64,000 nucleotides of DNA. Source: Candidatus Magasanikiibacteriota bacterium (GTDB lineage: Bacteria; Patescibacteriota; Patescibacteriia; Magasanikbacterales; GWA2-37-8). A model generated the notes under the pieces. The model made no database searches. It had not been told where the DNA came from and saw only the letters and a program-made list of their open reading frames with translations. The stretch's first letter is position 1. Every line of letters begins with the position of its first letter. The stretch covers positions 212,490 to 276,489 of the forward strand of contig JAGOQR010000001.1 in the NCBI GenBank assembly GCA_017991415.1, read 5' to 3'. Of the stretch, positions 14,731-45,029 are shown one piece after another. The position numbers and the translations under genes are program-made.

Positions 14731-14759
14731 TTGACAAAACAGCTAAAATATGCTATAGT
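14731..14759 (+). promoter_or_regulatory. consensus sigma-70 promoter TTGACA-N17-TATAGT
   Basis: TTGACA at 14731-14736, exact 17-nt spacer, TATAGT at 14754-14759. SD AAGGAG at 14771-14776 and ATG at 14785. Confidence 0.6.
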
Positions 14760-14784
14760 GGCTCCCAAATAAGGAGCCCTCGAA

Positions 14785-15006
14785 ATGAACGAACCCTTTC
14801 AACCCTTCGTCTGCGATTGGGACGATGAAAATCAGGGGATTCGTTTATTTGTCGAAGAAACCATCCCTCATTTTTTAATCGCGATTCTCATCGCAATTGC
14901 GCTAAAAAGGTGGAAATGGGACCCAAATCAAGAGCACGAAAAGGTCACTATTCCTACGGCACTCGCACCCCCAACCAGGAGAAGACGGTCATGGATCGAA
15001 TCTTGA
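14785..15006 (+). CDS. small hypothetical protein (first gene of GC-rich island A)
   Basis: 73 aa. Perfect SD AAGGAG 8 nt upstream. Contains one hydrophobic helix. Overlaps the next small ORF by 16 nt. Confidence 0.35.
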   Translation: MNEPFQPFVCDWDDENQGIRLFVEETIPHFLIAILIAIALKRWKWDPNQEHEKVTIPTALAPPTRRRRSWIES

Positions 15007-15221
15007 AGATTCTGGCAGTGATGGTTCTGGTGCTCGCAAGCATCATCGTCCTGTGCTACCTCTGCACGAGCGCCTACCTACTCGTCAACTGCCTGCTCTG
15101 GGGAGACGATGACCCCACCGCCATCGAGGAGATGTTCTCGATCCTTCTGAGCCTTGTTGTCGTTTTCAGCCTCGTTGCTGGGGCTGTGACGCACAGGCGC
15201 GACACGAACATGAAGGAATGA
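14991..15221 (+). CDS. small hypothetical membrane protein (second gene of GC-rich island A)
   Basis: 77 aa (MDRILKIL...) with two hydrophobic helices. SD AGGAGA upstream. GC-rich codon usage unlike the flanking genes. Confidence 0.35.
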   Translation: MDRILKILAVMVLVLASIIVLCYLCTSAYLLVNCLLWGDDDPTAIEEMFSILLSLVVVFSLVAGAVTHRRDTNMKE

Positions 15222-15247
15222 GGCAAGAGGAGAACCGCCTCCTCGCA

Positions 15248-15318
15248 CAAGCCACTCGGCAAGTCACCAAGTTTTTAATACGGATTGAAAGTTTGGTGAC
15301 GGGTGGCTTGTTTTTTTA
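15248..15318. terminator. rho-independent terminator (long interrupted stem plus T7)
   Basis: CAAGCCAC...GTCACCAA pairs with TTGGTGAC..GTGGCTTG, followed by TTTTTTT. Downstream of both island A (+) and the antiporter gene (-). Confidence 0.6.
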
Positions 15319-15321
15319 TAT

Positions 15322-16272
15322 TTATTTATTAGCAAAAAATTCTACCAAAACAAAGATAAGCCAAAATAAAAACAATAAATAACTTTCTCTTTTTGAAAGA
15401 GATTTTCCAGAACGCATAAAAAGAAATAAAATTACTGAAGCTGCCACCATAAATACACCTGTAATATAAATGATCTTTTGTGAAACAGAAAATGGATTGA
15501 TGAGTGCCAGAATACCAACTACCACGGTTGCATCGGCAAGGACTGTGCCAAGTATGTCCCCCACTGCCAAATCATCGTCTTGTTTTTTAACAGCCTGTAT
15601 TGCAAAAAATAATTCAGGCATCGTGGTACCCAAACCGACAAGCAGCATGCCAATTAAAATTGGATTTATATGAAGTAAGTTGGCAAAATTAACTGCAGAG
15701 GTTACCGTAAAATGAGATCCAACAATAAGTATTGCCATTCCCAAAAGCAACATGAAGAAATTTTTATACGGTGAGTGCTTACTTTTTTGAGCCTTAGAAA
15801 AATCAGAGCCACTCTTAAAAGCCATATAATAAAATACTGCTCCAAAAATTATAAGGGCCAGACCCTCTACTCTCGAAAAATAACCATCAATACCCAATAC
15901 AAGAGGTACGAGTAATAAAAAAGGGTATGCAATATTTTTTTTCAAAATTTTACTTTCAATTTTTATTCCACGCTTAGCAAATAAAATAATAATAGTAAAA
16001 ATTAACGTCATATCTGCCACATTGGACCCAAATAAAGTACCCAACCCGAACGAAGACATTCCAGCCAACGCAGAGTTTATCGCTACAAATGTTTCGGGCA
16101 AAATAGAAATAATGGCTACCACAATAAATCCAACCGTGTATTTGGACAAACCAAAGCTACTCGCCAAGTTGCCCGCATATTTGGTTGAAAAAGTTGCCCC
16201 TTTTATTACCAAGGCAAGCGCACAGATAAAGATAAAAATGCTTTCTACCATACTATTTTTTATTCTTCCCAC
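15322..16272 (-). CDS. CaCA-family sodium/calcium (cation:H+) antiporter, YrbG-like
   Basis: 316 aa, 10 TM, with duplicated alpha-repeat motifs GSNVADMT and GDILGTVLADATVV. Confidence 0.7.
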   Translation of the reverse strand: MGRIKNSMVESIFIFICALALVIKGATFSTKYAGNLASSFGLSKYTVGFIVVAIISILPETFVAINSALAGMSSFGLGTLFGSNVADMTLIFTIIILFAKRGIKIESKILKKNIAYPFLLLVPLVLGIDGYFSRVEGLALIIFGAVFYYMAFKSGSDFSKAQKSKHSPYKNFFMLLLGMAILIVGSHFTVTSAVNFANLLHINPILIGMLLVGLGTTMPELFFAIQAVKKQDDDLAVGDILGTVLADATVVVGILALINPFSVSQKIIYITGVFMVAASVILFLFMRSGKSLSKRESYLLFLFWLIFVLVEFFANK

Positions 16273-17645
16273 CGCTGATCTGTTGGATCAAAAATTGATT
16301 TTGACATTTCCTCGTTATTTAAAAACTTGGATATCCTGCTCGCACCGTATATGGATGGCAAAATACCAACCCCATTGCAACCAAGATTATATAGTAAAAC
16401 TGGGTTAATAGGTTCGGGGCCAACCCGACGAATACCGTTAGGCGTATACCCCATAAGCCCATGCCAGCAGAACCAATATTTGTTTTCTTCCGCTGGAAAT
16501 TTATTATAATTATCAAGCAAAAAATCATCTACAGCATTTTTTACTTCTTCGGAACAAGAGTCCTCTCTCGTATATTCTGCCCCATTTGGCAACACCTTTT
16601 CTGGGCCACCTGTACAAACCAAATTATATGTTTTTTTACCTTCATGTTCATGCGGACGGCGCGTCAGATAAAAATAACTTTCACCTGTTGGGTCCTCTAC
16701 TTCTTTCGCTTTAGGAAAATAACTTATAGCGGTCGGCGGATGATTGAGCGGCTCTACGTAACCAGACATATACCCAATTCGCCCTGCCACTGTAGCATGA
16801 AATTTTGTATCTATTTCTACCCCTACCTCATTAATAATTTTAAAATTTTCAAAACCATTTGTACACAAAACTATTTCTTTTGCCCCGACTTTATAATCTA
16901 ATACCTCAACGCTACCCAACCCATCTTGCAAACGAACAATACTCGCTGGACTACCCTCATAAAAACTAAACCTGCCTTTATAACTTGCAATTAAATATCC
17001 AATTAATTCTTCCGAGAATAAGGCGCTATTGGTACAGCCTTTCTGATACGAAAGCGCTGCTATATAATTCTTATTAGTTGTTTCAAGCAGTGCCAAAATA
17101 TCTTTTTGTTCCGTTATAGAATACAGATCACTATATTCAGCTGGCACATCTTTTAATCCGTCCCACTCTTTGGCAATAACTATGCTTTCTGTTGGCATAC
17201 CGCCCTGAACACGACACCTATTATTTTTTAAATGGACTAATAACTGCTCCATATTGGAAAAACCAGCATAACCAGTAAAACGATATATCGGTGTCTGCAA
17301 CTGAGCTTCCGTAACTATTGCATCAAGCAAACTCCAGGCAGATTCAACAGATCGCTGACCATCAATGGCCATATCGAGCCCAAACTCTTTTACTATATCA
17401 TGCAAAGGCCTCTCAAAATAACTTGTAATTTGGCCAGCATTGTGGCCAGTAGCTCCATGGGCAATTTTATCAGCCTCAAGCAACATAACGTTTTTATCAG
17501 TATTTCGTAATGTAAAAAAGGCTGTTGTTACACCAGCTATCCCCCCTCCCACAATAACGACATCTGTTTGCACATCCTGAGATAGTGGCACAACAGGACG
17601 AGTACGTTTTAATTCTTTTATCCAAGGCGAATGATTAGGAATCAT
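16260..17645 (-). CDS. FAD-dependent oxidoreductase (DadA/glycine-oxidase-like)
   Basis: 461 aa with an N-terminal Rossmann dinucleotide motif VVIVGGGIAGVTTAF. Confidence 0.65.
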   Translation of the reverse strand: MIPNHSPWIKELKRTRPVVPLSQDVQTDVVIVGGGIAGVTTAFFTLRNTDKNVMLLEADKIAHGATGHNAGQITSYFERPLHDIVKEFGLDMAIDGQRSVESAWSLLDAIVTEAQLQTPIYRFTGYAGFSNMEQLLVHLKNNRCRVQGGMPTESIVIAKEWDGLKDVPAEYSDLYSITEQKDILALLETTNKNYIAALSYQKGCTNSALFSEELIGYLIASYKGRFSFYEGSPASIVRLQDGLGSVEVLDYKVGAKEIVLCTNGFENFKIINEVGVEIDTKFHATVAGRIGYMSGYVEPLNHPPTAISYFPKAKEVEDPTGESYFYLTRRPHEHEGKKTYNLVCTGGPEKVLPNGAEYTREDSCSEEVKNAVDDFLLDNYNKFPAEENKYWFCWHGLMGYTPNGIRRVGPEPINPVLLYNLGCNGVGILPSIYGASRISKFLNNEEMSKSIFDPTDQRWEE

Positions 17646-18885: not shown

Positions 18886-18886
18886 A

Positions 18887-18918
18887 GCTACTCGTAATGT
18901 GAGTAGCTTTATTTTATT
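18887..18918 (+). terminator. rho-independent terminator after greA
   Basis: GCTACTCG-TAATGT-GAGTAGC hairpin followed by a T-run. Confidence 0.7.
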
Positions 18919-18926
18919 GCCTAGGA

Positions 18927-21679: not shown

Positions 21680-23017
21680 TTATATAAAAAATAGATAGAT
21701 AGCGCTACTAAAAATAATGACCAGCGCAGAAATAAAAAATTTAAAAGCAAACTGTTTTGTGCCCTGCAAATAAGAATACACTGTTTTACTAATTAAATTG
21801 GTAGCATTTACTAAAATAAAAGTAATAAATGCAAATTCAAAAGTAATGCTATGCCCAGCCATATCAGCTAAATTTACTAGAATTGCATCAAGCCCAGCCA
21901 GCGATGCAATTACAGAACTAATGACAAACCCTGATTTACCAAAGACTAATAATGATACCTTTGTAATGATTTTTACTGCAATTAAAATGCCTGCAAACTT
22001 GAGCGCAGGCATTAGAGAAAATATTTTTGTTGGTTTTACTTCTTGGCTTGGCGATTCATCTGACTCCTTTTTCTTTAAAAGAACTAGAGCAATAAACCCC
22101 GCCACTAAAATCATCAGCAAAATGCTCGGAGCAATCGAAACAAGCCATTTCGGATTTAATGGACCTACCAATAAAAATATTTGCAAAAAACTGGCTAGGT
22201 TAGCAAGTAGCGCTGCCCCAACTAGATGATTGGCAAAAGAAGAATGCTTACTTTTTTGAGCAAGCGACTGAGTTGCAGAAGTAGAAGAAACAAACCCTGC
22301 AATAAAACTAGTAAGAGCAAACCCTTTTTTATTACCAATAATTTTTCCTAAAATATATCCAAATACATCAATGCCTGTAATAAGAACAACGATAAACCAA
22401 ACTTTACGTGGATTAATGAGTTCCAAAGCACTAAACTGTCCCATTTCGACACCTATACCATTTAGAATAGCTGGCAAAACTGGAAGATCAGAAAGTTTAT
22501 AAGCAACATCAGGCAGAAACGGTAAAACAACTAAAGCAATAACTGCATAACTAATAAAAGACTGTAACTCTTCTCGAGAAATACCAGCAATTAATTGACT
22601 GGTCTTGGATTTTACCGATAAGACAAGCATGAGAATAACAAAAACTGCAACAATTATCTGCAACGGAATAATATCGAGCACCAACAATAAGCCAATTAAA
22701 AAAGTAATAATAACCGAAAGTTCTGTAGTAAGACCGAAATCTTTGGTTACAGAGACACCAGATATATAGTACGAGATAAGTAGCACTAAGAAACCGCCTG
22801 CAATAAGCAGCGCTAAGGAAGCAAAATTATGTACAAAAAATATACCAACGAGTGCTCCGATGAGAGCAATAAGTGAATACGTACGAATACCGCCCAAGGC
22901 GCTAGGCCCTTGTTTACTACCTTCTCGCTCCAAACCAATGGTTGCTCCCAAAATAATTGCTAATACTAATTTAGAAAATAATCCTGTAAACATGCAATAA
23001 ATGTTATAATTTATCAA
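21680..23017 (-). CDS. MgtC/SapB-family membrane protein with C-terminal DUF4010-like domain
   Basis: 445 aa. N-terminal MgtC signature LAIILGATIGLEREGSKQGPSALGGIRTYSLIALIGA. Polytopic. Confidence 0.6.
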   Translation of the reverse strand: MINYNIYCMFTGLFSKLVLAIILGATIGLEREGSKQGPSALGGIRTYSLIALIGALVGIFFVHNFASLALLIAGGFLVLLISYYISGVSVTKDFGLTTELSVIITFLIGLLLVLDIIPLQIIVAVFVILMLVLSVKSKTSQLIAGISREELQSFISYAVIALVVLPFLPDVAYKLSDLPVLPAILNGIGVEMGQFSALELINPRKVWFIVVLITGIDVFGYILGKIIGNKKGFALTSFIAGFVSSTSATQSLAQKSKHSSFANHLVGAALLANLASFLQIFLLVGPLNPKWLVSIAPSILLMILVAGFIALVLLKKKESDESPSQEVKPTKIFSLMPALKFAGILIAVKIITKVSLLVFGKSGFVISSVIASLAGLDAILVNLADMAGHSITFEFAFITFILVNATNLISKTVYSYLQGTKQFAFKFFISALVIIFSSAIYLFFI

Positions 23018-23059
23018 TCTATTTTATATAAAAAAAATTTTACTGTCCAGGCTATAATA

Positions 23060-23092
23060 AAAATCACTTCGTACAATGTACGAAGTGATTTT
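23060..23092 (-). terminator. palindromic hairpin terminator (AAAATCACTTCGTACA/TGTACGAAGTGATTTT)
   Basis: 16-bp perfect inverted repeat with a T-rich stretch after it on the minus strand. Downstream of the island B gene. Confidence 0.55.
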
Positions 23093-23103
23093 ATATTTGG
23101 GAT

Positions 23104-23162
23104 TCTCCAGAGCGCTTCTGGGGCCAATTATTTTTGGCACAAGAAGCGCAAACTCTGGAGAA
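23104..23162. repeat. long imperfect inverted repeat (TTCTCCAGAGCGCTTCT ... AGAAGCGCaaaCTCTGGAGAA)
   Basis: About 18-bp stem with a 3-nt bulge and 21-nt loop, directly 3' of the high-GC gene. Possible terminator or recombination-site remnant. Confidence 0.4.
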
Positions 23163-23205
23163 TTTCTATTTCTCAAAGAGCGCGCTTACTGCTTAGCAAC
23201 CTTGA

Positions 23206-23847: not shown

Positions 23848-24015
23848 CGTGATCTCCTTGGAACGAAACGTGGGCGGCGATCCCATAACAGGATCACCAG
23901 AAATGGTGCAGTAGTTTCTCTCTGATTTTGATGCCCAAAAAAGACAACAAAAACAGAGAGAAACAACGCGTATCTTTGAATTGTAAAGAAATTGTTGCCT
24001 AAAACGCAACAAAAC

Positions 24016-33961: not shown

Positions 33962-36955
33962 TTACCTATTTTTACTAACTATTTTTTTAGTCAGTGACCC
34001 AAAATATCCGTCTGCTGGCAATATATTATAATATTTTTGAAAATTTATAAGAGCTTTTTTTGTACCTGAACCAAAATATATTGTTTCTTGCCCTTTTGAA
34101 CCGTAACCCAATTCCTCGACGACAAAACCCTTGTTATTCAACAATACTTGTAATTGTTTTACATCCTCACCGCGCATTCCTTGTTTTAAATTTCTAGCAA
34201 ACACAAAAGTGCTTTTATCCGATTGCACAGTACAGCCTATATGCTTTCGAACAGTACCATCAAAATTACCATAACTAGCAGTATTAACTTTTTGAGTTTT
34301 TTGCATTTGCATTACAGCTTGTTTTGTTTTTACACCAAAATAATCTGATTCATTTCCAATAGAACCATGCCCTGATTGCGAAACTATAAAACCATTTTTG
34401 TTTAAATATTTTTGCAACTGCCTTACATCTTCACCCGACATACCTATCTTTAGATCACGCGTAAATAAAATTGAACATACATTATCTATATTTTCTCCAG
34501 AAACGCTCTTCTCCCTATCTAACAGGGAAGAGACTGTAATCTCAACACGATTTATCCAAATATCCGCAAACACTGCTTTAATATCTTTAATACCATCCCC
34601 GTCTAGATCAATTTCAGAACTACTACCTAAATCTAATTCAAATTGTTGCGGCTCAGACGACACTGTAAATAAAACTTTTTTATGCAGCGTATCCAAATTA
34701 TCAATCCTTAGCTCATGATCCTGCATATCATTTGTTTTACTTACCAGAACATTGAACATGGCTTGTGACCCAATATACGCAAGCAAATTAATACCACTAA
34801 AACTTACATTTCCGACTACAGATGATTCATACATGCCGATAGTTTTTTCAGTATTTGCATTTCCTACGGCCGGCGCCACTGCAACTATTGCCGTGCCAGG
34901 TGTAACCGCAGCCTGATCCTGATTTATAACTGAAGGATCGCTCATTATTGTAAAATTCCAAACGCCAGAATTAGAAACTCCCGCGTAACTATTGCCATTT
35001 ATATCATCAAAGGCAGTGGCAGCAATAAAAACATAATAGCTGGCTCCATACGCAAAGGTAGAAGATGGATTTATAACAATTTGCGCAGTGCTCGTTCCTG
35101 TTATTTGTGACGAGGTTACATTTATTGTTTCAAAAATAGAATTATCCTCTGTTTTATAAATAGTAATTGCCCCTGCCTGTGCAGTCACCGCTTCACTAAA
35201 GTTAATAACTAAATCAGCGGTTGTAGTAACGTCCAGTGCATTATCCGACGGAAACACTGAAGAAACTGTTGGGTTTGTTTCGTCCGCAACAGTAAAATTC
35301 CAATACGTTGCAGAACTAATACCAACATATGCATTTCCACTGCTATCACTAAAAGCAGTGGAACTAACAAGAACATAATAACTAGCCTCACTAGCTAAGG
35401 CACTAGAGGGATTAATAATAATAGTCGCGGAACCAGATCCAGTAACTTGCGATGAGCTCGCAACAATTGACTCAAACACGGAACCATCATTATTATAAAT
35501 AGTAATCGAACCAGTTGTTGAAGGAATTACTGCTTCCGAAAAATTCAAAACTAAATTTACCGTACTCGATGTGGTAGTGGCATTATCAACAGGAAAAAAG
35601 GAATTAAGAGATGGGCTGGTAATATCTGCAACACTCTGTGAGCGTAAATACGGATAACCGTTGTTAGTTGACCCATCAATATTCCATATAGCAGCGAAAT
35701 CCCAACCGACAAATGTCGCTTGATCTTTCATTTGAATAGTTGTTTTACCAGTAGCCCCACCTGCACTTGATGATTTACCCGAGGTCTGCGTATCCCAATA
35801 TACACTTGATGTAGTAACTCCCCCTCCAGGATTTGTTCCAAGCAAACCTCCGATTGTAGCACCGGTATTTGTTACAAAACCCACAGAATACACCCTAGCC
35901 AAATTTGTACCCCAAACTGAACCTAAAAATCCACCAGAACTATTTGCACAAGTGACGTTGCCAGTAGCATACGAATCCTGAATATATAAATATTCATTAT
36001 ACCCACCAAAACCACCACACGCAGAAGTGCCGTATACATTTCCAGTAGCATACGAGCTGGATACATGCGTACCTGAGCTTAACGCACCTCCTTGACTAAA
36101 TCCAAAAAAACCACCGTTCCAACTTCCCGACGAGGTTACATTGCCGGTAGCGTAAGAACTGTATACATACGCCTGATAAATATGGCCTACAAAACCACCC
36201 ACACCGTTGTTACCATTTGTATTTCCAGTTGCATAGGAAGAACTTACTACTGCACTGCCAGAAATAGAGCCTGCAAAACCTCCTAAACGCTGGTAACCTG
36301 TTACATTTCCCGTTGCATACGAATCGTAAATTCGACCTGCGCTTACATTCCCGAACAAACCACCCACACCTAACCCATTGCCATAAACTATAGCCGTTGA
36401 ATAAGAAGAGCTTACTGTACCACCAGAGAAAGTACCCATCAAACCTCCTGCTGAATAAGTACTAGACACAACTCCAGTAGAATAATTATTAGTACTAGTT
36501 ACTGTTCCAATCCCTACCATAATACCAGCTGAAGCTGAAGCATGAGAGCTGGTCACATTAGCATTGGTAATCCCTAAATTTTTAATTGTAGCGTTCTGCA
36601 CATACCCAAAAAGGCCGACATATTGCGTGCTGGTAGAAATAAATAAATTTGAAATGACATGTCCATTTCCGTCTAAAGTACCTTGAAATCTTAATGATAC
36701 ATTTCCAATCACTGTCCATCCAAAACCCGTATTGTACGGGCTGGTGTTTAAATCAATATCGCTTGTAAGTATAAAAAATTTACCAGATGAAGATGTTCCG
36801 TTATAATTTGCCACTTCTGCCAAATCCGTAGCATTAGCAATTTGCCAAGGGCTACCAGATGTACCACTACCCCCAGAAAAAGCATGGGCGAGCTGGGGTA
36901 CAAATAACAAAATTCCCCAGATAATTATAGTAAAGTTTAAAACGTTTTTTTTCAT
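33962..36955 (-). CDS. giant secreted surface protein with GLUG-type Gly/Ser/Thr/Tyr repeats, Ig-like domains and two C-terminal peptidoglycan-binding (PG_binding_1) domains
   Basis: 997 aa with a signal peptide. About 20 short repeats (Y/S-ATGNVTG..GG..G) like GLUG motifs. Two Ig-like modules. Two copies of a PGBD-type ...GMSGEDVRQLQKYLNKNGF / ...GMRGEDVKQLQVLLNNKGF motif at the C-terminus. Confidence 0.5.
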   Translation of the reverse strand: MKKNVLNFTIIIWGILLFVPQLAHAFSGGSGTSGSPWQIANATDLAEVANYNGTSSSGKFFILTSDIDLNTSPYNTGFGWTVIGNVSLRFQGTLDGNGHVISNLFISTSTQYVGLFGYVQNATIKNLGITNANVTSSHASASAGIMVGIGTVTSTNNYSTGVVSSTYSAGGLMGTFSGGTVSSSYSTAIVYGNGLGVGGLFGNVSAGRIYDSYATGNVTGYQRLGGFAGSISGSAVVSSSYATGNTNGNNGVGGFVGHIYQAYVYSSYATGNVTSSGSWNGGFFGFSQGGALSSGTHVSSSYATGNVYGTSACGGFGGYNEYLYIQDSYATGNVTCANSSGGFLGSVWGTNLARVYSVGFVTNTGATIGGLLGTNPGGGVTTSSVYWDTQTSGKSSSAGGATGKTTIQMKDQATFVGWDFAAIWNIDGSTNNGYPYLRSQSVADITSPSLNSFFPVDNATTTSSTVNLVLNFSEAVIPSTTGSITIYNNDGSVFESIVASSSQVTGSGSATIIINPSSALASEASYYVLVSSTAFSDSSGNAYVGISSATYWNFTVADETNPTVSSVFPSDNALDVTTTADLVINFSEAVTAQAGAITIYKTEDNSIFETINVTSSQITGTSTAQIVINPSSTFAYGASYYVFIAATAFDDINGNSYAGVSNSGVWNFTIMSDPSVINQDQAAVTPGTAIVAVAPAVGNANTEKTIGMYESSVVGNVSFSGINLLAYIGSQAMFNVLVSKTNDMQDHELRIDNLDTLHKKVLFTVSSEPQQFELDLGSSSEIDLDGDGIKDIKAVFADIWINRVEITVSSLLDREKSVSGENIDNVCSILFTRDLKIGMSGEDVRQLQKYLNKNGFIVSQSGHGSIGNESDYFGVKTKQAVMQMQKTQKVNTASYGNFDGTVRKHIGCTVQSDKSTFVFARNLKQGMRGEDVKQLQVLLNNKGFVVEELGYGSKGQETIYFGSGTKKALINFQKYYNILPADGYFGSLTKKIVSKNR

Positions 36956-37124
36956 AATATAGTACAGACAATCATTTTGACAAAAATATTATACCATATA
37001 ATATTTTTTCTTAAAAATTTAATTAACAAAAAAGCCAACGCACACCTTAAAGGTGCCTACCATAATAGATGATATTTTCTTCATTTTTTACAACCGAGCC
37101 ATATGAATAACAAAAATGGTACGT

Positions 37125-37175
37125 GCAATATCAAAAAAATGTTTGGGATGAGGCAAATTTATAACTTTTATTTTA
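37125..37175. repeat. weak/diverged copy of the intergenic repeat (TGTTTGGGATGAGGCAAATTTATAACTTTT)
   Basis: Shares the TTTG(T)GGGATGAGG core with the copy at 40001-40038. Lies 3' of the CDP-alcohol phosphatidyltransferase gene. Confidence 0.3.
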
Positions 37176-37195
37176 TTTAACATGCTTGATAGGAT

Positions 37196-37873
37196 TTAGA
37201 CCTTATTTTTATCATTCAACTGTTTTGCCACCATATCCATTTCCCATATTTTTTTCTGCTCTTTACCAATAACAATAACGAGCCCTAAAAATGAAAAGGG
37301 CAAAATAAATTGCATACTAAACGCCAGATGGGTTTTGCCCAAAAAAATTAACAATGTGTTAATAACAATAAATACAAGACGAATTTCTGTGGGCCCAATA
37401 CCAAGATGAGCAATACGAAACTTATTTGTTGCGGCCATCACTAAAAAAGAATTAATCATAAAACCGGCAACAAGAGAAAAGATAAAGAAAAATATCCACT
37501 TTGACTTATCAGGCAACAAAATCATATACCCAATCATAATGGAAGCAAGAAAAAAATAATCAAGTAAATGATCCATATAATAGCCCCATCGAATCAAGCC
37601 CGTATTCCTTGCCCGACCGACTGCGCCATCGAGCGAATCGGTGAGCCATTGCATTACAATCATTACTGAGACACCCCAAAGCCAGAAAACATCCTTCACG
37701 GCAAAAAAACTAAAAATAATGATTAGCAAACTAATCGGGATTGTAGCAAGCGTAAGATGGTATGTCTGAATTGAAGCTGGTACTTTTGGCACAGCCCAAA
37801 CGATAAATCTTTGCTCCAAGTTATGTAATAAAGATTTTCCAACTTTTTTATCTCCAGAAAATATAGCATCCAT
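37196..37873 (-). CDS. CDP-alcohol phosphatidyltransferase family protein
   Basis: 225 aa. D-S-L-D-G-x2-G-R...G...D...D motif (DSLDGAVGRARNTGLIRWGYYMDHLLD). Polytopic. Confidence 0.65.
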   Translation of the reverse strand: MDAIFSGDKKVGKSLLHNLEQRFIVWAVPKVPASIQTYHLTLATIPISLLIIIFSFFAVKDVFWLWGVSVMIVMQWLTDSLDGAVGRARNTGLIRWGYYMDHLLDYFFLASIMIGYMILLPDKSKWIFFFIFSLVAGFMINSFLVMAATNKFRIAHLGIGPTEIRLVFIVINTLLIFLGKTHLAFSMQFILPFSFLGLVIVIGKEQKKIWEMDMVAKQLNDKNKV

Positions 37874-37933
37874 AATAATTTCAATTAGTAGTGTGTGATA
37901 AATAAAAAAATTATCTTTACGTAAATCTACCGA

Positions 37934-38599
37934 TTACGAAGCTACAATTTGCCCATCAGACAAATGTATTATTCGCTCAGTCATATTACCATACTCTTGT
38001 TCGTGCGTTACCATAACAATGGTCTGCCCTTCTTTGTGTAACTCTAGAAATATTTTCATCACTATCAAACCTGTTTCACTATCCAAATTGGCGGTTGGCT
38101 CGTCGGCAAATAAAATTTTTGGCTTGTGAGCAATCGCTCTAGCAATAGAAACACGCTGCTGCTCCCCGCCAGAAAGTTGTCCGGGCACATTATCTTTTTT
38201 GTTTGCAAGCCCCATTTTTTCTAATGCTTCCATGGCAATTTTTCTAGCTTGCTTTTGGGAATATCCTTGCATGAGTAGCGGCACCATTGTATTTTCTATA
38301 GCAGTTAGTTCCGGCAAAATAGCATAATCTTGAAACACATACCCTAGCTCAATAAGCCTAAAATGCGCGCGCTGGCTAGAGGTGAGTTTATTTGTATCAA
38401 CTCCATTAAGTACAATAACGCCTTCATTTTGATGATCAAGCAAACCAAGCTGATACAAAAGCGTACTCTTACCAGCACCAGAACGACCCATAATAGAGAC
38501 GAATTCACCGTTGGCAATACTTAAATCTATTCCTCGTAAAATAGTGGTTTCTACCGTCCCATTGTAAAATTTTTTAATAATATTTTTTGCTTCAATCAT
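37934..38599 (-). CDS. ABC transporter ATP-binding protein (MacB/LolD type)
   Basis: 221 aa with GRSGAGKST, LSGGEQQRVSIARA and ILFADEPT. Confidence 0.85.
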   Translation of the reverse strand: MIEAKNIIKKFYNGTVETTILRGIDLSIANGEFVSIMGRSGAGKSTLLYQLGLLDHQNEGVIVLNGVDTNKLTSSQRAHFRLIELGYVFQDYAILPELTAIENTMVPLLMQGYSQKQARKIAMEALEKMGLANKKDNVPGQLSGGEQQRVSIARAIAHKPKILFADEPTANLDSETGLIVMKIFLELHKEGQTIVMVTHEQEYGNMTERIIHLSDGQIVAS

Positions 38600-38604
38600 A
38601 CTAT

Positions 38605-39876
38605 TTAATTTCTACCTAAAATTGAATCTAGTGTATTTTTTCTTATTACAAGCCAAGCAGGCAATAGCCCGGCCACTACAGCTGTACACATAATAACGCT
38701 TACTCGCACTGCTGTACCAACATATGGCGCCACCAGAATCCCATCAGAAAATGGAAAGTTAATTGGATGCACATCTATATACGGCTTTAAAAACCCATAT
38801 AAGATTGCAAGCCCAATGGTAATACCGAGGGCAGCATAAAATACAGAAAGCATGACGTACGAAATAATAATCGCTTTACCATCTACACCTACACCTTTAA
38901 GGATGCCGATAAATTTACGACGAGTAATGGCGTTGATAAAAATAACAATAAACAGTGTAATAGTGGCAACGATAAGACCAATACTACCAATAACATTTCC
39001 AAGCAACTCAAACGTAAAAGAAATATCTCTAAAAAATTTTCCTTGCGACTCTTCGGATGTTTGTACTGTAGCAAAGGTATCTACCGACTGGGCTAACAAC
39101 CTATTTTTAAATTCAAGCTCGGTGGTATTACCCACAGTTTTAATGGCAATTTCGTCAACATTATAATCGGGTCGGCCAGCAAACTGGCGCAGCTCCCTAT
39201 CAACCAAATAAATGCGGCGATTTACCTGATCTATTTTGCTTTTAATAATACCTTTGACTGTAAATTCTTTGGCAATACCGCCAAGGGTTATTTTTATTTT
39301 AGTACCAGGCACCACACCTTTAATAGTTTGTTCACCAGTAACATTGCCATTTAAAAATTCTTCTAACAGGCCGCTGCCGATTATAATTTGTCCATTATCA
39401 TCTGGCTCGAAATAATTACCAGCAATTAATAATGACGACAAATTGCTTAGTGAGTTTTCGTCAATAGAATTTATACCTGCCAAGATTGCTGCAGCTTGAT
39501 CGGGCAGCTCAGTTAAATTACTTCTATCTCTGTAATTTGCTTCTACAGTAGCTGCCTCTAAAATGCGGCCCGAAAAAGATTGTACACCCTCGGTAGCCTG
39601 GATAATTTTCAAAATTTGCGTAGAATTTTGAATAAACGCTTTATTAGGCAGACTTGTTAACAGGACATCACCGGAATATTGAGAAATATAGGCATTAGAA
39701 GATCCAGCAATTAAGCCAATAAGAATTCCATTTACCACAACTACATTAAGAAAGGTAAACGTCATCACCACAATGGTTAATGGCGTAGTCCAGCGGCTGC
39801 CACGTTTTAAATTAGACCAAGCCAAAAAATGACCAACACGAATAGAGATAAAAAACTTTTTTAACCAGAGAAACAT
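38605..39876 (-). CDS. ABC transporter permease, FtsX/MacB-like
   Basis: 423 aa. N-terminal TM, a large periplasmic domain and a C-terminal 3-TM FtsX domain. Confidence 0.75.
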   Translation of the reverse strand: MFLWLKKFFISIRVGHFLAWSNLKRGSRWTTPLTIVVMTFTFLNVVVVNGILIGLIAGSSNAYISQYSGDVLLTSLPNKAFIQNSTQILKIIQATEGVQSFSGRILEAATVEANYRDRSNLTELPDQAAAILAGINSIDENSLSNLSSLLIAGNYFEPDDNGQIIIGSGLLEEFLNGNVTGEQTIKGVVPGTKIKITLGGIAKEFTVKGIIKSKIDQVNRRIYLVDRELRQFAGRPDYNVDEIAIKTVGNTTELEFKNRLLAQSVDTFATVQTSEESQGKFFRDISFTFELLGNVIGSIGLIVATITLFIVIFINAITRRKFIGILKGVGVDGKAIIISYVMLSVFYAALGITIGLAILYGFLKPYIDVHPINFPFSDGILVAPYVGTAVRVSVIMCTAVVAGLLPAWLVIRKNTLDSILGRN

Positions 39877-39967
39877 ACAATATTATAGATAACAATTTTC
39901 TAGTGCTAGAATAACAAAAAAAGATGCTACTGACAACACAACAGCCGACAAAAATGGCTACTTAAAC

Positions 39968-40040
39968 AAAACAGGCACTTTCGTACCTGCTCATCCTAAA
40001 CTGCTTCATTTGTGGGATGAGGTTAGAAATTTTTTGACTA
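39968..40040. repeat. copy of the intergenic repeat (CTGCTTCATTTGTGGGATGAGGTTAGAAATTTTTTGAC)
   Basis: Lies between the ABC permease start and the EEP gene stop. Aligns to the GTGCTCCGTTTGTGGAACGATGTTAGAA consensus. Confidence 0.5.
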
Positions 40041-40068
40041 AAAACCCTCTAAATTAACCTTTGCATCA

Positions 40069-40872
40069 CTATACCTCAAATTCTAAAATAAGAGGTAGAT
40101 GGTCGGAAATTGACACATCCGGTACTGTAAGACTCTTTGCTTTAATACCAGCAGAGACAAAAGCATAGTCTGCAAACTCTTGCCAGCCGTTTGACCCAGT
40201 ACCATAATGAGGATATAATTTTTTATGAAGGCTTCCGCGTGTAGTTTTTATAGAAAATTCTTTAATTAAATTAAGAAAACCTGCTCTTTCAAACATAGCA
40301 ATACTTTCGGTATCAGGTAAAAGATTAAAATCTCCAACAATAATCTTTTCACCCGATTGTTCATTAATAAAATCAAGAATCTTTTGTGATTGAGCTAAAC
40401 GTTCTGGACTGTCTAATTTATTACCAGGCTCAGATACACCATGGACATTACAAACAGTAAGCTGCTTACCGTTAAGTAAAAACTGCACCCAATGCAAGTT
40501 AGCAGGAAAAGATTCAAAATCATTTAAAATAAATGAATTTAGACTATTACAAACAAAGAACTCACCTGTTTTATTAACAGTAATTTTTTGATTTACAAAA
40601 GTAGCCACTCCTGTATCTACCTCTTCTCGAACTATAGTAGTTTGATCAAAATGTTCCTGTGCAATAGCAAAAAAACTCTGCGATTTTTCTAATCTTTTTT
40701 TAAACTCATCAAAAAGATTAGCTTTGGCACCATTACTTATAAACGACCCTTTAGAAGTACGTAAAACTTCTTGGAAACAAAATATGTCAGTATCACTGGC
40801 ATTTGCTTTAATAAAAGCTACAAGTGGGTCAAAAATCTTACCACCGTAGGTATTTAATGAAATAATCTTCAT
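40069..40872 (-). CDS. endonuclease/exonuclease/phosphatase (EEP) family protein
   Basis: 267 aa with EEP catalytic motifs (N-terminal ...IISLNTYGG...FCFQE; C-terminal SDHLPL). Confidence 0.6.
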   Translation of the reverse strand: MKIISLNTYGGKIFDPLVAFIKANASDTDIFCFQEVLRTSKGSFISNGAKANLFDEFKKRLEKSQSFFAIAQEHFDQTTIVREEVDTGVATFVNQKITVNKTGEFFVCNSLNSFILNDFESFPANLHWVQFLLNGKQLTVCNVHGVSEPGNKLDSPERLAQSQKILDFINEQSGEKIIVGDFNLLPDTESIAMFERAGFLNLIKEFSIKTTRGSLHKKLYPHYGTGSNGWQEFADYAFVSAGIKAKSLTVPDVSISDHLPLILEFEV

Positions 40873-40962
40873 ACTTTAAAGCTCGATATTAATTACAGAT
40901 CTTATTCTATCTTCTTCGCTAATTGTAGTCAATCATGCTCCAAAACTTAGAGCTGGCACATA

Positions 40963-41026
40963 AAATAACCACTTGGTTAAGTGGTTATTTTATGTGCTCC
41001 ACGGATTATGTCTTTTCCGAACTTTT
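40963..41026. repeat. diverged copy of the intergenic repeat (AAATAACCACTTGGTTAAGTGGTTATTT hairpin plus TATGTGCTCCACGGATTATG...)
   Basis: Same two-part architecture (terminator-like hairpin followed by TATGTGCTCC...). Between the EEP and HAD genes. Confidence 0.45.
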
Positions 41027-41047
41027 CAAAATTTATCAAAAACTACT

Positions 41048-41656
41048 TTACTCTAAACTAACATCTATACACCTAAGGTAATCGCCAAAGCTAGCAGCAT
41101 CAGTATACACATAGCCACCTATACCTAACTTAATTGCGGTTTTTACATTGGCCTCTGCATCATCAATAAATATTGCTTCTTCAGGTTTTACATTTAGTTT
41201 CTGTAACGCGTGTAAATAGATATCATCCTCTGGTTTTATCATTCCTACTATAGAAGAAATTACTATTTCGTCAAATAGACTTTTAAAATCAGGATATGTA
41301 GGAAAAACCTTTCGATCAAAGAAGGTATGATTGGCATTAGAAAGTAATCCTACTTTAAAATCTTGTTTTCTAAGGTTTTGTATTATGCGTACTAAATTAT
41401 GATCTATCTCTAAATAGCTATCAATTTCATTTCTAAGATCTTCTTTAGATAGCGTTACTATATCGTAATTCAAAAAGTAATCTAACAGATTATCTTCAGA
41501 TAATTGACCAAGATCAAATTTTTTTAACGTACTTTCTAAATTTTCATCAACTAGTCCGTACTTTTCTCGTTTATCCTTGTGCCAACCACCAATAAAAGGC
41601 TTAAGAATAACACCGAAGCAATCGAATATGAAGGTGTTAATTTTTTGATTTTGCAT
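41048..41656 (-). CDS. HAD-superfamily hydrolase
   Basis: 202 aa. Motif I FIFDCFGV and motif IV-like FIDDAEANV. Confidence 0.65.
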   Translation of the reverse strand: MQNQKINTFIFDCFGVILKPFIGGWHKDKREKYGLVDENLESTLKKFDLGQLSEDNLLDYFLNYDIVTLSKEDLRNEIDSYLEIDHNLVRIIQNLRKQDFKVGLLSNANHTFFDRKVFPTYPDFKSLFDEIVISSIVGMIKPEDDIYLHALQKLNVKPEEAIFIDDAEANVKTAIKLGIGGYVYTDAASFGDYLRCIDVSLE

Positions 41657-41873
41657 ATTAAATCTGCCAGATGATTAAGTAATTATTTTCAATGATTTCC
41701 AAGCTTAAACATGAAGAATAAAAAATTACAATTCCTTCTGGATTTGCTCCCACGCTTGTTTAAATATACTCATAGATATTTATTGTTAGCACAGAATTGA
41801 TCTTATCGTCAATATTATACACCAATGTAGATTGGTGACACAAACTTATCTATCTGCACAAGTTTATAGCGCA

Positions 41874-42395
41874 CTAAACAGACCCATCAACACCCCAATT
41901 CTCACTAGCTACAAAACATTTTATATTGTTATCAATAAGAAGTTTGTAAAAACTTTCTACATGTCTTTGACCACAGATAAAGATGGCTCGGTCATCAGTC
42001 TCTTCCCTAATTTTTTCTAACCAATAAAGCTCCCTGAGCTTAAAATCCTCTTTTTCAATTTTACTTATATCATCTTGTCTATAATACTTATTACCAGGTA
42101 TGCCAAGCTTATGTATAATAGTTTTAGTATCAGCTTCAATCAACTTTCTTTCTTCTTTTCCTGGATCGCAAAATTTATGCCTGACATTCTTTTTTTTAGC
42201 CACCGTTTTTGTAAGACTAGCAGTTGCGCGCCATACCGACAACGCTTCTTCACTGAACTCCTCAGCAACTAGTGTTGCACCGAATCTGTCAATGAGCTCA
42301 CCTAAATATTTAGCGAAGCTATTATTTAAATCAGGGTCGCTGCTGTCGTTTATAAATTGGACTTTATGATTCACTCCAATCAGATACACAATCAT
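41874..42395 (-). CDS. hypothetical protein
   Basis: 173 aa, soluble, no recognisable domain. Confidence 0.3.
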   Translation of the reverse strand: MIVYLIGVNHKVQFINDSSDPDLNNSFAKYLGELIDRFGATLVAEEFSEEALSVWRATASLTKTVAKKKNVRHKFCDPGKEERKLIEADTKTIIHKLGIPGNKYYRQDDISKIEKEDFKLRELYWLEKIREETDDRAIFICGQRHVESFYKLLIDNNIKCFVASENWGVDGSV

Positions 42396-42420
42396 ACTAA
42401 TATCTAAATCTTTTTAACAA

Positions 42421-42466
42421 GTTTTGGATATGCAATCCGTTTATGGGATGATGTTCAAACTTTTTT
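42421..42466. repeat. copy of the intergenic repeat core (GATATGCAATCCGTTTATGGGATGATGTTCAAACTTTTTT)
   Basis: Abuts or overlaps the stop codon of the gene at 42469-43122. Confidence 0.5.
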
Positions 42467-42468
42467 AT

Positions 42469-43122
42469 TTACAAATCAAAACTCTTAACTACTCGTGTTG
42501 CTACATACTTTCTATTTTCCAAAATCAACTTAGATGGCTTTAATTCGGGGTTAATTCTCAGCAAATTCATTATAAGAAAATAGCCTATATTATACCCAGC
42601 AGATTGAGGGATCTTTTTTTCTTTTGAGCCGTAAAACCAATCATCATAACTATATTCTTTGAAAAAGAATTCTTTTTTTGCTTTTTTTAATACTCGCTTT
42701 AACTCTACAGCGCTTAGCCATGCAAAACTATTGGAATAACCTGCCCCTGTAATTTCTGCTTCAAAATGGCTAGCAAGACCTTCTTCAATAAACTCATCAA
42801 GTAAAACTGTCCCGTCCTTTACTTTTTGCGCATGTGTTGTGTGGTATAATTCGTGAGCCAAAGTTCTTAAGAAATTCATATACAAATGTTTCTGGAACTG
42901 TTTTGACTGTGCGTTTAAACGAATATTTATTCCATACTTACCATGTGTTTCACCACTCATCTCACCAAACTCAAGATCATGTTCAATAACAATATCAACA
43001 TCAGATACTGGTATATATTTGGAAATAACACGGATAGCTTTATGTGCTGTATCGAAAATTATTTTTTTATGAGGCTGCAACACTGGATCGTTGGTCAATA
43101 CATGGATATTTATATTTTTCAT
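42469..43122 (-). CDS. putative Zn-dependent protease (HExxH; DUF2268-like)
   Basis: 217 aa with a HELYH zinc-binding motif (LAHELYHTTHAQK). Confidence 0.45.
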   Translation of the reverse strand: MKNINIHVLTNDPVLQPHKKIIFDTAHKAIRVISKYIPVSDVDIVIEHDLEFGEMSGETHGKYGINIRLNAQSKQFQKHLYMNFLRTLAHELYHTTHAQKVKDGTVLLDEFIEEGLASHFEAEITGAGYSNSFAWLSAVELKRVLKKAKKEFFFKEYSYDDWFYGSKEKKIPQSAGYNIGYFLIMNLLRINPELKPSKLILENRKYVATRVVKSFDL

Positions 43123-43187
43123 AAGCTATTATTTTATAATAGCCAAAGAATATCATAAAACATGCTTTCTAGCTATAGCTAGAAACA

Positions 43188-43256
43188 AAACCAAAAAACA
43201 CATGGTTAGGAGGGAATGATATGTGCTCCGTTTGTGGAGCGATGTTAGAACTTGTT
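43188..43256. repeat. copy of the intergenic repeat (degenerate hairpin plus TATGTGCTCCGTTTGTGGAGCGATGTTAGAACTTGTT)
   Basis: 6 nt after the stop of the lipase-like gene. Adjacent to a perfect palindrome TTTCTAGCTATAGCTAGAAA at 43164-43184. Confidence 0.55.
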
Positions 43257-43266
43257 TAGCTAAAAT

Positions 43267-43989
43267 CTAAAATTGTCCTATATTTAAAAATTTTGTGATG
43301 GCGCTAATTACTTCATCTCCATTCATTATCCATGTATGCTCTCGTTCCACAACAAGAAAATCCTTCATATTCTCTAGTGCCGTTCTCTCTTGAGAAACTT
43401 TTTCATCATATTTTCCAGCTATTATTCCCACATCATAGTTTGGTAAAGGAAGCTTATTTACAAAGCTATTTTCATTTGTAGTCAGCTCTCTTAATGCCGG
43501 GCCCATAAAAAAATTCACAAATCGGTTATTAGCCCACTTATCAGCAGTTTCACTCCCTTTATTTGGCGGGGCAAGCATTACAACTCTGTGCAAATTTTCT
43601 ACTTCGTTAGTAGCCAGATAATATCGCACCATCACCCCTCCCATTGAATGGGTTACAAAATTTATTTTCCTGTCTTTATCTGTATATTTTTTATCCAGCT
43701 CATTAATTAAATCTTTTTTAACAAGATTTTCTATCGTATCACTCCTTGATGCATAGTTGAAATTTATTACTCTATATCCCTTTCTACTAAGAGACGTTGC
43801 AAGTTTTTGCATTGAAAAGGACGTCCTTCCAAGGCCATGTAAAAGCACTACGTACTCCCCCTTATTGTCTGTAAGCGATTTTGAAACAGCATGGGTTTCA
43901 TAAAAAAGAAAAACACCTAAAAATAGGACAGTGATTACAATTATATAAAATAAATACCGTAAAATTTTCTTCATATAAATATTCCACAT
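43267..43989 (-). CDS. alpha/beta-hydrolase (lipase/esterase-like, PGAP1-type)
   Basis: 240 aa with N-terminal TM and a nucleophile elbow THSMGG (GxSxG). Confidence 0.6.
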   Translation of the reverse strand: MWNIYMKKILRYLFYIIVITVLFLGVFLFYETHAVSKSLTDNKGEYVVLLHGLGRTSFSMQKLATSLSRKGYRVINFNYASRSDTIENLVKKDLINELDKKYTDKDRKINFVTHSMGGVMVRYYLATNEVENLHRVVMLAPPNKGSETADKWANNRFVNFFMGPALRELTTNENSFVNKLPLPNYDVGIIAGKYDEKVSQERTALENMKDFLVVEREHTWIMNGDEVISAITKFLNIGQF

Positions 43990-44050
43990 ATAACAATATC
44001 ATACATGGTAAATGAAAACAAAATCTAATTATAAAAATAAGACTTGTTTT

Positions 44051-44090
44051 ATCGCTCCGCTGTCTAGACAAAATTAGAACTGATTTTATT
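44051..44090. repeat. degenerate copy of the intergenic repeat (ATCGCTCCGCTGTCTAGACAAAATTAGAACTGATTTT)
   Basis: Shares GCTCCG...TTAGAACT with the consensus. Immediately upstream of the island C promoter. Confidence 0.35.
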
Positions 44091-44150
44091 CACAATAGAT
44101 ATGATATAAACTTTATTATCTAAAAAACGCCGCTTGCCCAACACATTACA

Positions 44151-44179
44151 TTGACAGTCCGTTCTTTTTATGCTACACT
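44151..44179 (+). promoter_or_regulatory. consensus sigma-70 promoter TTGACA-N17-TACACT
   Basis: TTGACA at 44151-44156, 17-nt spacer, TACACT at 44174-44179. About 115-nt leader. SD GGAGAG 6 nt before the ATG at 44293. Confidence 0.5.
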
Positions 44180-44292
44180 CATCGGCTATATTGGTTCAGG
44201 TTCTATATCGATGTCTGTGGCGAATACCACGGAAATCGGTAGGGGTCTGACCCCTAACTACTCGACCACACATCAACATCGGAGAGATCGTC

Positions 44293-44850
44293 ATGGTGAA
44301 TACCTGCCGCAGCTTCGGCTGCATCCTGCTGGCCCTGGTCATCCTTGGTGGCTGCGGCTCGACCGACAAGCCGACCCCAATCTGCGCCCTCATCAGCGTC
44401 AACCCCAACACGCCGATGGGTAGCCAGATCGGACCCGGCGGCACGTGGGATCCGAAGGGAGAGGCCCAGACGGTCCTAGCCTTCACAATGTTCAGGGTGG
44501 ACGGCGAGGGCTGCCAAACGGCAACTTTCACCGGTCTACCCATGAGGGTTGACCCGAACACAAGCCAGTTCGTGATCGGCCGAAACTTCAGACTCGTCAG
44601 CGAACTGAATGGCCGCCTCGTCGATATCTCGGTCGGCACAATCATGAGCGACGGGAAACTCAACGTGAAACTCCAAACGAGAGAAAATCTCGAAAAAGGC
44701 AGCCGCTACTTTCAACTGCACCTGGACACGAGCAGCGCGCAACGTGGCGACAAGCTCGCTATCATCAGTGGCGCCGTCGAGTACGAGATCAGCGGGAAGA
44801 AGTTCACTTCGTACCAGCTGTGGTACGCGCCGCCACCGATCGAATACTGA
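44293..44850 (+). CDS. lipoprotein of unknown function encoded by high-GC island C (foreign composition)
   Basis: 185 aa. Signal peptide plus lipobox LVILGG|CGS. About 60% GC with GC3-rich codons. No recognisable domain. Confidence 0.5.
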   Translation: MVNTCRSFGCILLALVILGGCGSTDKPTPICALISVNPNTPMGSQIGPGGTWDPKGEAQTVLAFTMFRVDGEGCQTATFTGLPMRVDPNTSQFVIGRNFRLVSELNGRLVDISVGTIMSDGKLNVKLQTRENLEKGSRYFQLHLDTSSAQRGDKLAIISGAVEYEISGKKFTSYQLWYAPPPIEY

Positions 44851-44870
44851 TCAGACCACAAGGTCAGATC

Positions 44871-44923
44871 AACTGAACGGCTCGGATTCGCTCACGCGAC
44901 CGAGACGGTCAGACTTCATCCGA
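44871..44923 (+). terminator. 15-bp perfect inverted repeat (CTGAACGGCTCGGAT ... ATCCGAGCCGTTCAG) 3' of the island C gene
   Basis: GC-rich stem with a 23-nt loop. No immediate T-run. The AT-rich repeat terminator follows at about 45085-45112. Confidence 0.4.
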
Positions 44924-45029
44924 GCCGTTCAGATAGTGCAGTAATTTCTTGCTACATTATCTGAGCTCGGATGTTATAAATAACATAAATTTAAAAACAA
45001 CCTTTTAACAGATGGTTGTTTTTATTTTA

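Follow-up and report, generated by a model that had tools for sequence, protein, structure and literature searches.

Small GC-rich gene cassettes with conserved, structured untranslated regions in Candidatus Magasanikbacteria, and the possible maintenance of their silent-site composition

Why would a few short genes be rich in G and C in a bacterium whose other genes are AT-rich, and what does their composition say about where they came from? The question is raised by three islands in a 64,000-nt stretch (hereafter the window) of contig JAGOQR010000001.1 of Candidatus Magasanikiibacteriota, which we label cassettes A (with open reading frames (ORFs) A1 and A2), B and C (Table 1). The initial annotation, made from the sequence alone, had read them as complete foreign transcription units, recently acquired from a donor of high GC content (for instance an actinobacterial host), and had offered a family of promoter-gene-terminator cassettes as the alternative. 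Indeed, the islands are real, compositionally alien and complete as transcription units, as judged by GC content at third codon positions (GC3), by their promoters and by the folding of their 3' trailers, but equally GC-rich homologues of B and C are present in low-GC relatives and no donor was found. With moderate confidence, we lean towards reading the islands as members of a class of small, autonomous cassettes found across the Candidatus Magasanikbacteria clade, chromosomal but moron-like, in which GC-rich codons are maintained.

The GC content of the whole window is 37.2% (0.372), and a 120-nt scan picked out three long stretches of at least 50% GC, at 14881-15310 (54%), 23141-23920 (60%) and 44191-44970 (57%). 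For 40 native ORFs the mean GC at codon positions 1, 2 and 3 is.46/.35/.29, with a highest GC3 of.35, as compared with.56/.33/.77 for A2,.56/.43/.90 for B and.53/.46/.78 for C, and these three are the only GC3 outliers among the approximately 70 ORFs of the window. The GC richness ascribed earlier to island A holds for A2, while A1 is just mildly enriched (.50/.41/.47), so that this island is mainly A2. Calculated as minimum free energy (MFE) per 100 nt, fold strength is about 1.2-2 times higher in the island ORFs than in native ORFs.

As the initial annotation had stated, each island begins with an exact TTGACA promoter with a 17-nt spacer. We found seven instances of TTGACA-N17-TAnnnT in the window where 0.91 are expected, a number that none of 100 shuffled sequences reached. 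The islands account for three of them (at 14731, at 24044 on the minus strand and at 44151). All three island promoters have an extended -10 TG, and those of A and B are the top two sigma-70 matches within the 9.7 kb between 14.5 and 24.2 kb. The remaining four lie ahead of tRNA-Asn, tRNA-Gln and two native protein genes; because the same consensus precedes tRNAs and native genes, the promoter type is native rather than imported and represents the organism's own strong-promoter type. The strong Shine-Dalgarno (SD) sites 6-8 nt ahead of the island start codons also proved to have the motifs and spacing described, and the general lack of SD sites in native genes was borne out, with an SD-like motif in only 1/40 native genes of the window. 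When native gene starts were compared (e.g. upstream of 9398, 39876 and 59773, and in 73 related loci), -10-like hexamers (TAWWWT) were enriched 6-9 nt upstream of start codons, at 4-6% per position versus a background of about 2%. Taken together, the near absence of SD sites and this enrichment suggest that many native first cistrons may be leaderless.

The untranslated regions (UTRs) of the cassettes carry a second set of signals. The leader of A is short, unlike those of B and C, which are long and structured. For the B leader, a consensus structure built with three homologues contains 48 pairs, 11 of them with compensatory changes (relative to the leader at locus L008), and a conserved segment, AUUUCUUU, is predicted to pair with the SD AAGGAG (23854-23859), so that the leader would occlude it. 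The B trailer and terminator together fold with a z-score of -8.5 against shuffled sequences, and in the C trailer 10 of 54 consensus pairs are compensatory. Strong predicted terminator hairpins, each with a U-run after it, were confirmed at the island ends; that of C lies at 44993-45027, beyond the end first given, and a hairpin at approximately 44883-44931 belongs to the longer conserved trailer of C. Between species, B is 96% identical in its trailer and 89-93% in its leader, as opposed to 45% in its central coding region, and in several cassette families the UTRs are more alike than the proteins. We read the UTRs as probable functional RNAs on the basis of their folding (z -5 to -8.5), compensatory pairs and conservation, and they are under stronger constraint than the cassette proteins. 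UTRs of different families are unrelated, and A, B and C have no site in common.

In one case the same UTRs surround a different gene. X110, a 110-aa GC-rich ORF located between a P-type ATPase and a response regulator in L008 and L012, has on its two sides the promoter, leader, trailer and terminator of the B type, in which compensatory changes are seen, yet its protein is unrelated to that of B (BLASTP E 8.9). One UTR chassis would thus carry two unrelated cargoes.

Relatives of the window allowed us to ask how old the cassettes are. Related loci are numbered with an L; 80 of them were recovered via the neighbouring TerC protein, and their titles are mostly Magasanikbacteria or other Patescibacteria/candidate phyla radiation (CPR), with many records labelled 'uncultured Gammaproteobacteria'. 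Cassette B lies at the same locus, flanked by a NAGPA-like gene and MgtC, in L005 and as an uncalled copy in L006, both of which have promoter, leader, trailer and terminator in common with the window and a GC3 of.95. Its homologues number three among 5.8 billion protein clusters, the best being a hypothetical protein of a Candidatus Magasanikbacteria metagenome-assembled genome (MAG). Homologues of C occur at 86, 71 and 56% identity in three other lineages (L006, L008 and L010), with GC3 of.70-.80, and an exhaustive HMMER search of 1.84 billion representatives added a fifth member, P0008. They share the genomic neighbourhood and differ in their immediate flanks: conservation between genomes starts at the -35 box and stops just after the terminator. 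Comparison of junctions with relatives thus defined the boundaries of C, although no target-site duplications were found. No credible homologue of B or C was found beyond the Magasanikbacteria clade in the 5.8 billion clusters and 1.84 billion representatives, and no island homologue in IMG/VR or INPHARED (GenBank phages), contrary to the expectation that the best matches would be in Actinobacteria or their phages.

The site of cassette A, between TerC and a Na/Ca exchanger, holds TTGACA-promoted cassettes in L014, L015, L016, L020 and L021, with the promoter at a position equivalent to that of A. These cassettes encode small hydrophobic peptides, most with two hydrophobic segments; A-type cassettes at this site were counted in six species, in which TerC is 76-85% identical. 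The L016 cassette has two cistrons and the same terminator sequence as the window, short 3' matches to the A trailer and terminator were seen in L013 and L020, and in L019 the site is empty (70 bp). A2 has a weak tblastn match to the same-site peptide of L014, and by eye a YLLV..W.G..P motif is common to A2 and the same-site peptides of L014 and L015. Conversely, L013 (3552-5415) and L016 (3570-5489) carry a cassette where the window has just a 41-bp spacer (18886-18926). It encodes an orphan of 258 and 248 aa, respectively, with GC3 of.95 and.81 and an SD, and its promoter lies about 190 nt upstream. Identity is 41-44% between the two proteins but 87% over 209 nt between the 3' UTRs. Cassettes are thus present or absent at otherwise syntenic sites among relatives. 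With B and C homologues in related genomes and A-type cassettes at the same site, the cassettes are old, and they have been gained, lost or re-cargoed between relatives. The boundaries of C, presence and absence at syntenic sites and the single UTR set with two ORFs all fit the alternative offered at the outset, a family of promoter-gene-terminator cassettes.

The same combination of features was seen in a survey of 73 loci (the window and relatives) with 1,480 ORFs, in which an outlier was defined as an ORF with GC3 more than 0.3 above the median of its locus. Among the 27 outliers, 44% have an SD-like motif and 56% an exact consensus promoter within 300 nt, as compared with 5% and 5% of 1,348 ordinary ORFs. 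Ten outliers were examined in the relatives, six of which are orphans, and five of these six have an exact consensus promoter upstream.

If the cassettes are old, is their GC-rich silent-site composition maintained? Between the window and L006, fourfold sites of native genes are 61% identical and G/C was kept in 49-50%, whereas fourfold sites of the islands are 83-86% identical and G/C was kept in 92-93%. A neutral model fitted to the native fourfold sites gives at most 66% G/C retention from an all-GC ancestor. Where native fourfold identity is saturated, at 37% between L013 and L016 and at 36% between the window and L010, island G/C retention is 84% and 79%, respectively. Overall, G/C retention at fourfold sites is 79-93% in the islands and 44-66% in nearby native genes. 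This retention is strong, albeit not perfect, and shows G/C-ending codons that persist far beyond neutral decay in an AT-biased genome.

The main rival explanation is that the cassettes were imported long ago, are under no selection on composition, and spread among Magasanikbacteria as mobile elements or allele sweeps well after their flanks had diverged. We consider this unlikely, although it accounts for several observations: the neighbours of C are not the same in the window, L006, L008 and L010, and its homology runs from the -35 box to beyond the terminator; cassettes are polymorphic for presence and absence; B alleles are mosaic; silent sites show a net GC-to-AT drift, as amelioration predicts; and synonymous divergence (dS) is 3-4 times lower in the islands than in the flanks. 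For C, window versus L006, dS is 0.22 and the ratio of non-synonymous to synonymous divergence (dN/dS) 0.36, as compared with 0.6-0.97 and 0.04-0.22 for native neighbours. However, neutral-like positions of C are as diverged as unrelated DNA. In the same comparison the leader is 83% identical over its conserved part and the fourfold sites of the coding sequence are 86% identical, but the promoter spacer is 41% (7/17) and the first 25 transcribed bases (+1 to +25) are 67% identical, and the cassette is therefore not simply younger than its flanks. Nor can a young cassette explain why the coding sequence of B is so much more diverged (45% identity) than its UTRs. In addition, the ratio of island to flank dS is roughly constant over three divergence depths, and cassette borders showed no repeats, target duplications or recombinase genes.

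The rate estimates themselves need some care. C is under purifying selection (dN/dS about 0.35). In B, synonymous differences plateau at 0.23-0.30 in all pairs and non-synonymous differences reach 0.33; we rejected the apparent dN/dS above 1 as largely an artefact, because synonymous differences saturate, at about 0.25-0.30, once G/C alone is tolerated.

GC-biased gene conversion at recombination hot spots, which would drive the GC content of the cassettes up, is in our judgement improbable. Recombining bacterial genes tend towards higher GC3, and B offers mosaic alleles, a central region in two allelic forms and cargo replaced within conserved arms. The explanation is weakened because the GC excess is concentrated at third codon positions of the ORFs, while leader segments of the same cassettes are AT-rich, at 33-42% GC; moreover, a GC3 shift from.29 to.90-.95 far exceeds, to our knowledge, anything attributed to biased gene conversion in bacteria.

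We give somewhat less credence still to the reading proposed at first, namely a recent acquisition of three genes from a high-GC donor (actinobacterial host or phage) that have not yet ameliorated. A GC3 of.77-.90 versus.29 in native genes, the presence of SD sites, the status of A2 as a singleton without homologue in a word-based search, the net GC-to-AT drift and the GC-rich enzyme genes in relatives that look like ordinary transfers are all in line with it. It is nonetheless largely refuted by the homologues of B and C, which are equally GC-rich in low-GC related species, where B keeps its locus and C its genomic neighbourhood, a finding that the initial annotation itself had held to speak against recent transfer. 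A-type cassettes at one site in six species, GC kept across saturating divergence and the lack of a donor homologue in the 5.8 billion clusters, 1.84 billion representatives, IMG/VR and INPHARED point the same way. Lastly, an assembly or binning artefact that joined GC-rich fragments of another organism to an AT-rich contig, which the sharp composition boundaries might suggest, is in practice refuted and of negligible probability, since both C junctions are 99.96-100% identical in three independent assemblies (one from GenBank and contigs from two sequencing runs), L005 and L006, which come from two further samples, have the B junctions too, the same architecture is found in dozens of MAGs from different studies, and the AT-rich promoters and leaders are continuous and co-conserved with the GC-rich ORFs.

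In the interpretation that we favour, a maintained cassette class, each unit would be composed of four parts: a native-type consensus sigma-70 promoter with -35 box and extended -10; a 5' leader that ends in a strong SD and that is long and structured for B and C; a short, fast-evolving and clade-restricted ORF; and a very stable structured 3' trailer with terminator. The coding parts would probably have entered long ago from a GC-rich, SD-using source and would stand in native promoter and UTR frames, and selection on the mRNA or its translation may since have held silent-site GC. A likely aim would be a long-lived, nuclease-resistant and SD-gated transcript in a cell whose own mRNAs would be rich in A and U and for the most part leaderless or devoid of an SD. 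Since membrane peptides and a lipoprotein are among the products, and since the products evolve fast, the cargo probably serves in interactions with a host, phage or competitor.

Several points weigh against this interpretation. Polarised third-position changes run GC-to-AT over AT-to-GC at 9:1, 16:7, 27:8 and 22:1, an excess that parsimony may exaggerate and that indicates a composition slowly drifting down rather than in strict equilibrium. Promoters, SD occlusion, terminators and mRNA stability are all deduced from sequence, each family offers 4-5 related sequences, so that covariation and rates are small-sample estimates, and the modular chassis has one clear pair, B and X110. Four of the ten outliers examined in relatives are ordinary enzymes that lack the cassette architecture and have the look of ordinary transfers, two of them with an exact promoter within 300 nt (Table 1), and plain horizontal transfer from GC-rich donors thus also occurs in the clade.

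A bolder proposal, which we put forward only tentatively, is that two expression regimes coexist in these cells: ordinary AU-rich, SD-less and often leaderless genes on the one hand, and cassettes with SD-gated long-lived mRNAs, a modular UTR chassis and synonymous sites selected at 75-95% G/C on the other. If so, synonymous GC would be a selected functional trait of a gene class and not a record of ancestry, and the coding cargo would be exchanged, or would diversify rapidly, within a conserved and modular UTR chassis. Atypical GC is routinely taken as a sign of recent transfer, and that inference fails for the whole class in this clade, because the GC signal persists across a divergence that saturates neighbouring silent sites. 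The class sits in a candidate-phylum lineage that otherwise barely uses SD sites, and it gives a concrete handle on the regulation of a special set of envelope and unknown proteins in uncultured, ultra-small bacteria; these proteins probably take part in interactions with phages or other cells. Literature searches turned up no account of such a phenomenon for CPR bacteria.

How do the cassettes compare with known systems? The cargo of phage morons is often a small membrane protein or lipoprotein, and the cassettes resemble morons in several respects. They appear to carry a promoter and a terminator of their own around one or a few genes, their GC3 is.77-.90 versus.29 in native genes, and they are extra DNA, as seen from the 70 bp at the A site of L019 and from the 41-bp spacer of the window relative to L013/L016; morons of the HK97/HK022 type are independent transcription units, additional DNA separating genes that lie side by side in relatives, with a GC content unlike that of their neighbours (Cumby et al., 2012; PMC3594210). 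The cassettes differ from morons in that they lie outside prophages, with cellular neighbours (TerC, Na/Ca exchanger, MgtC, NAGPA, GNAT and tRNAs) and no match to PHROGs or phage collections, are long conserved within one bacterial clade, keep their silent-site GC where morons bear a passing mark of transfer, and have long structured UTRs that are better conserved than the ORF. In the model of Lawrence and Ochman, compositionally atypical transferred genes are reportedly expected to ameliorate. With such genes the cassettes share a GC3 and SD use alien to the host and a slight GC-to-AT drift; they differ by the lack of donor homologues, by their presence in relatives (B at the same locus) and by fourfold G/C kept at 79-93% versus 44-66% at nearby native sites. 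A recent genomic island was rejected, as there is no donor-lineage homologue of matching composition, relatives are occupied and marks of mobility such as an integrase, flanking repeats or tRNA insertion are missing, the islands having no repeats elsewhere in the window and cellular genes on their flanks.

Integron cassettes are likewise short single-gene modules, often of atypical composition, with a structured 3' element and varying cargo in a conserved frame, but we saw no attC consensus, integrase or array, and the units here are solitary, with their own promoter and terminator and family-specific hairpins. A target of a diversity-generating retroelement was also discarded, since the window holds no second copy of any island segment. 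For cassette A, with its small hydrophobic peptides A1 and A2, a type I toxin-antitoxin system, which pairs a small hydrophobic toxin peptide with an overlapping antisense RNA, was considered as a candidate. With riboswitches, RNA thermometers and attenuators that sequester an SD, the B leader has in common a structured, covarying fold and a conserved run of pyrimidines for which pairing with the SD is predicted; it differs in that it belongs to no Rfam family and is accompanied by an equally conserved 3' trailer.

Table 1. Features of the three cassettes and other elements discussed (window coordinates unless an L locus is given). Promoters, leaders and terminators are predictions; SD sites were read from the sequence.
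Feature	Position	Strand	Remarks
A promoter	14731-14759	+	TTGACA, 17-nt spacer, TATAGT; extended -10 TG; pattern and sigma-70 scan
SD of A1	14771-14776	+	AAGGAG, 8 nt ahead of ATG
A1	14785-15006	+	73-aa ORF; single hydrophobic segment; GC3 0.47 (mild enrichment)
SD of A2	14977-14981	+	AGGAG, A2's own
A2	14991-15221	+	76-aa peptide with GC3 0.77; two hydrophobic segments; 16-nt overlap with A1
A trailer and terminator	15222-15318	+	Nested long hairpin, then T7; MFE -44.5 kcal/mol, z -6.6
B terminator hairpin	23060-23092	-	15-bp stem, A and T runs alongside
B 3' trailer	23094-23205	-	Long hairpin (23103-23166); 96% identical between species
B	23206-23847	-	213-aa soluble protein; GC 63%; GC3 0.90
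B 5' leader	23848-24015	-	About 168 nt; structured, three hairpins; MFE -57.4 kcal/mol, z -6.6
SD of B	23854-23859	-	AAGGAG, 6 nt ahead of ATG
B promoter	24016-24044	-	TTGACA, 17-nt spacer, TATATT; extended -10 TG; kept in L005, L006 and the L008 X110 cassette
C promoter	44151-44179	+	TTGACA, 17-nt spacer, TACACT; extended -10 TG; inter-genome homology begins exactly here
C leader	44180-44292	+	About 113 nt; conserved hairpins
SD of C	44281-44286	+	GGAGAG, 6 nt ahead of ATG
C	44293-44850	+	185-aa predicted lipoprotein (lipobox LGGC); predicted all-beta; GC3 0.78
C 3' trailer	44851-45027	+	Multi-hairpin, with terminator; MFE -68.3 kcal/mol, z -8.5
C intrinsic terminator	44993-45027	+	Hairpin, then U-run
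Exact consensus promoter	47599-47627	-	Directly upstream of tRNA-Asn (47511-47583)
Exact consensus promoter	53974-54002	-	Directly upstream of tRNA-Gln (53809-53882)
NDP-hexose 2,3-dehydratase	L018 1138-1752		Without consensus promoter
PNP/UDP phosphorylase	L047 20023-20832		Exact promoter within 300 nt
M29 peptidase	L049 498-1610		Without consensus promoter
PgpA	L079 1209-1673		Exact promoter within 300 nt

The cassette products had been called unrecognisable, and we agree: they are small envelope or soluble proteins, for which Pfam, PHROGs, PADLOC and NCBIfam gave nothing usable and a PDB sequence search gave no match. A1 and A2 are probably small membrane peptides; of the two lengths first given, 73 and 77 aa, the former stands and A2 is 76 aa. 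B has a conserved N-terminal region of about 97 aa. Its AlphaFold2 model reached a predicted local distance difference test score (pLDDT) of 55, with no Foldseek match in PDB or BFVD below E 0.04, and the model of C (pLDDT 40) was unusable. Dual coding by an antisense ORF in B was rejected, since the open antisense frame is trivial when sense third positions lack A. In C, a clear coding signal was found only in the annotated frame and in the antisense frame that shares its third positions. A profile of C gave weak multi-stretch matches (E 7e-12 to 7e-4) to giant surface proteins with SEA-, Ig- or cadherin-like repeats (P0009-P0012), which we judged non-specific, as generic beta-domain or compositional similarity.

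Searches at the nucleotide level were also made. Rfam at gathering score returned only tRNAs across the window, and permissive Rfam on the B leader and trailer region (23000-24100) only chance miRNA-like hairpins. A repeat search found no second copy of island DNA within the window. A covariance model of the B leader detected no further copies in the window, 10 related loci and the 80 TerC loci (about 1.4 Mb), and a search with the B trailer motif gave no match among genome representatives and a single one, again the L008 locus, in Joint Genome Institute (JGI) metagenomes.

Gene calls at the cassettes are unreliable. For the B orthologue in L006 (1098-1826, minus strand) the wrong frame was called (242 aa), the NCBI start of B in the window is an upstream in-frame ATG (23886) that is missing in relatives (226 aa), and the called start of P0008 falls within the C leader, which is conserved. 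Such GC-rich genes are given wrong frames or starts by gene callers, and protein databases consequently under-represent the class.

Around the cassettes we made a few further observations. In L015 (2820-3862) the A-type cassette is duplicated in tandem, with two TTGACA promoters and two paralogous hydrophobic membrane peptides of GC3.68 and.53. In the window, about 11.8 kb (32346-44190) with roughly a dozen genes lie between an acyltransferase gene and cassette C, while the two are adjacent in L006 (9757-9899); the region beside cassette C is thus a large indel or variable region. Cumulative GC skew falls near-monotonically over the window (1-64000) to -23.7 and the long ORFs are mostly on the minus strand, consistent with a location on a single replichore. 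Finally, adjacent tRNA-Thr(CGU) and tRNA-Gly(CCC) genes at 63091-63258 (minus strand) read only the G-ending codons ACG and GGG, which would be expected to occur rarely in the AT-rich native genes and often in the GC-rich cassettes.

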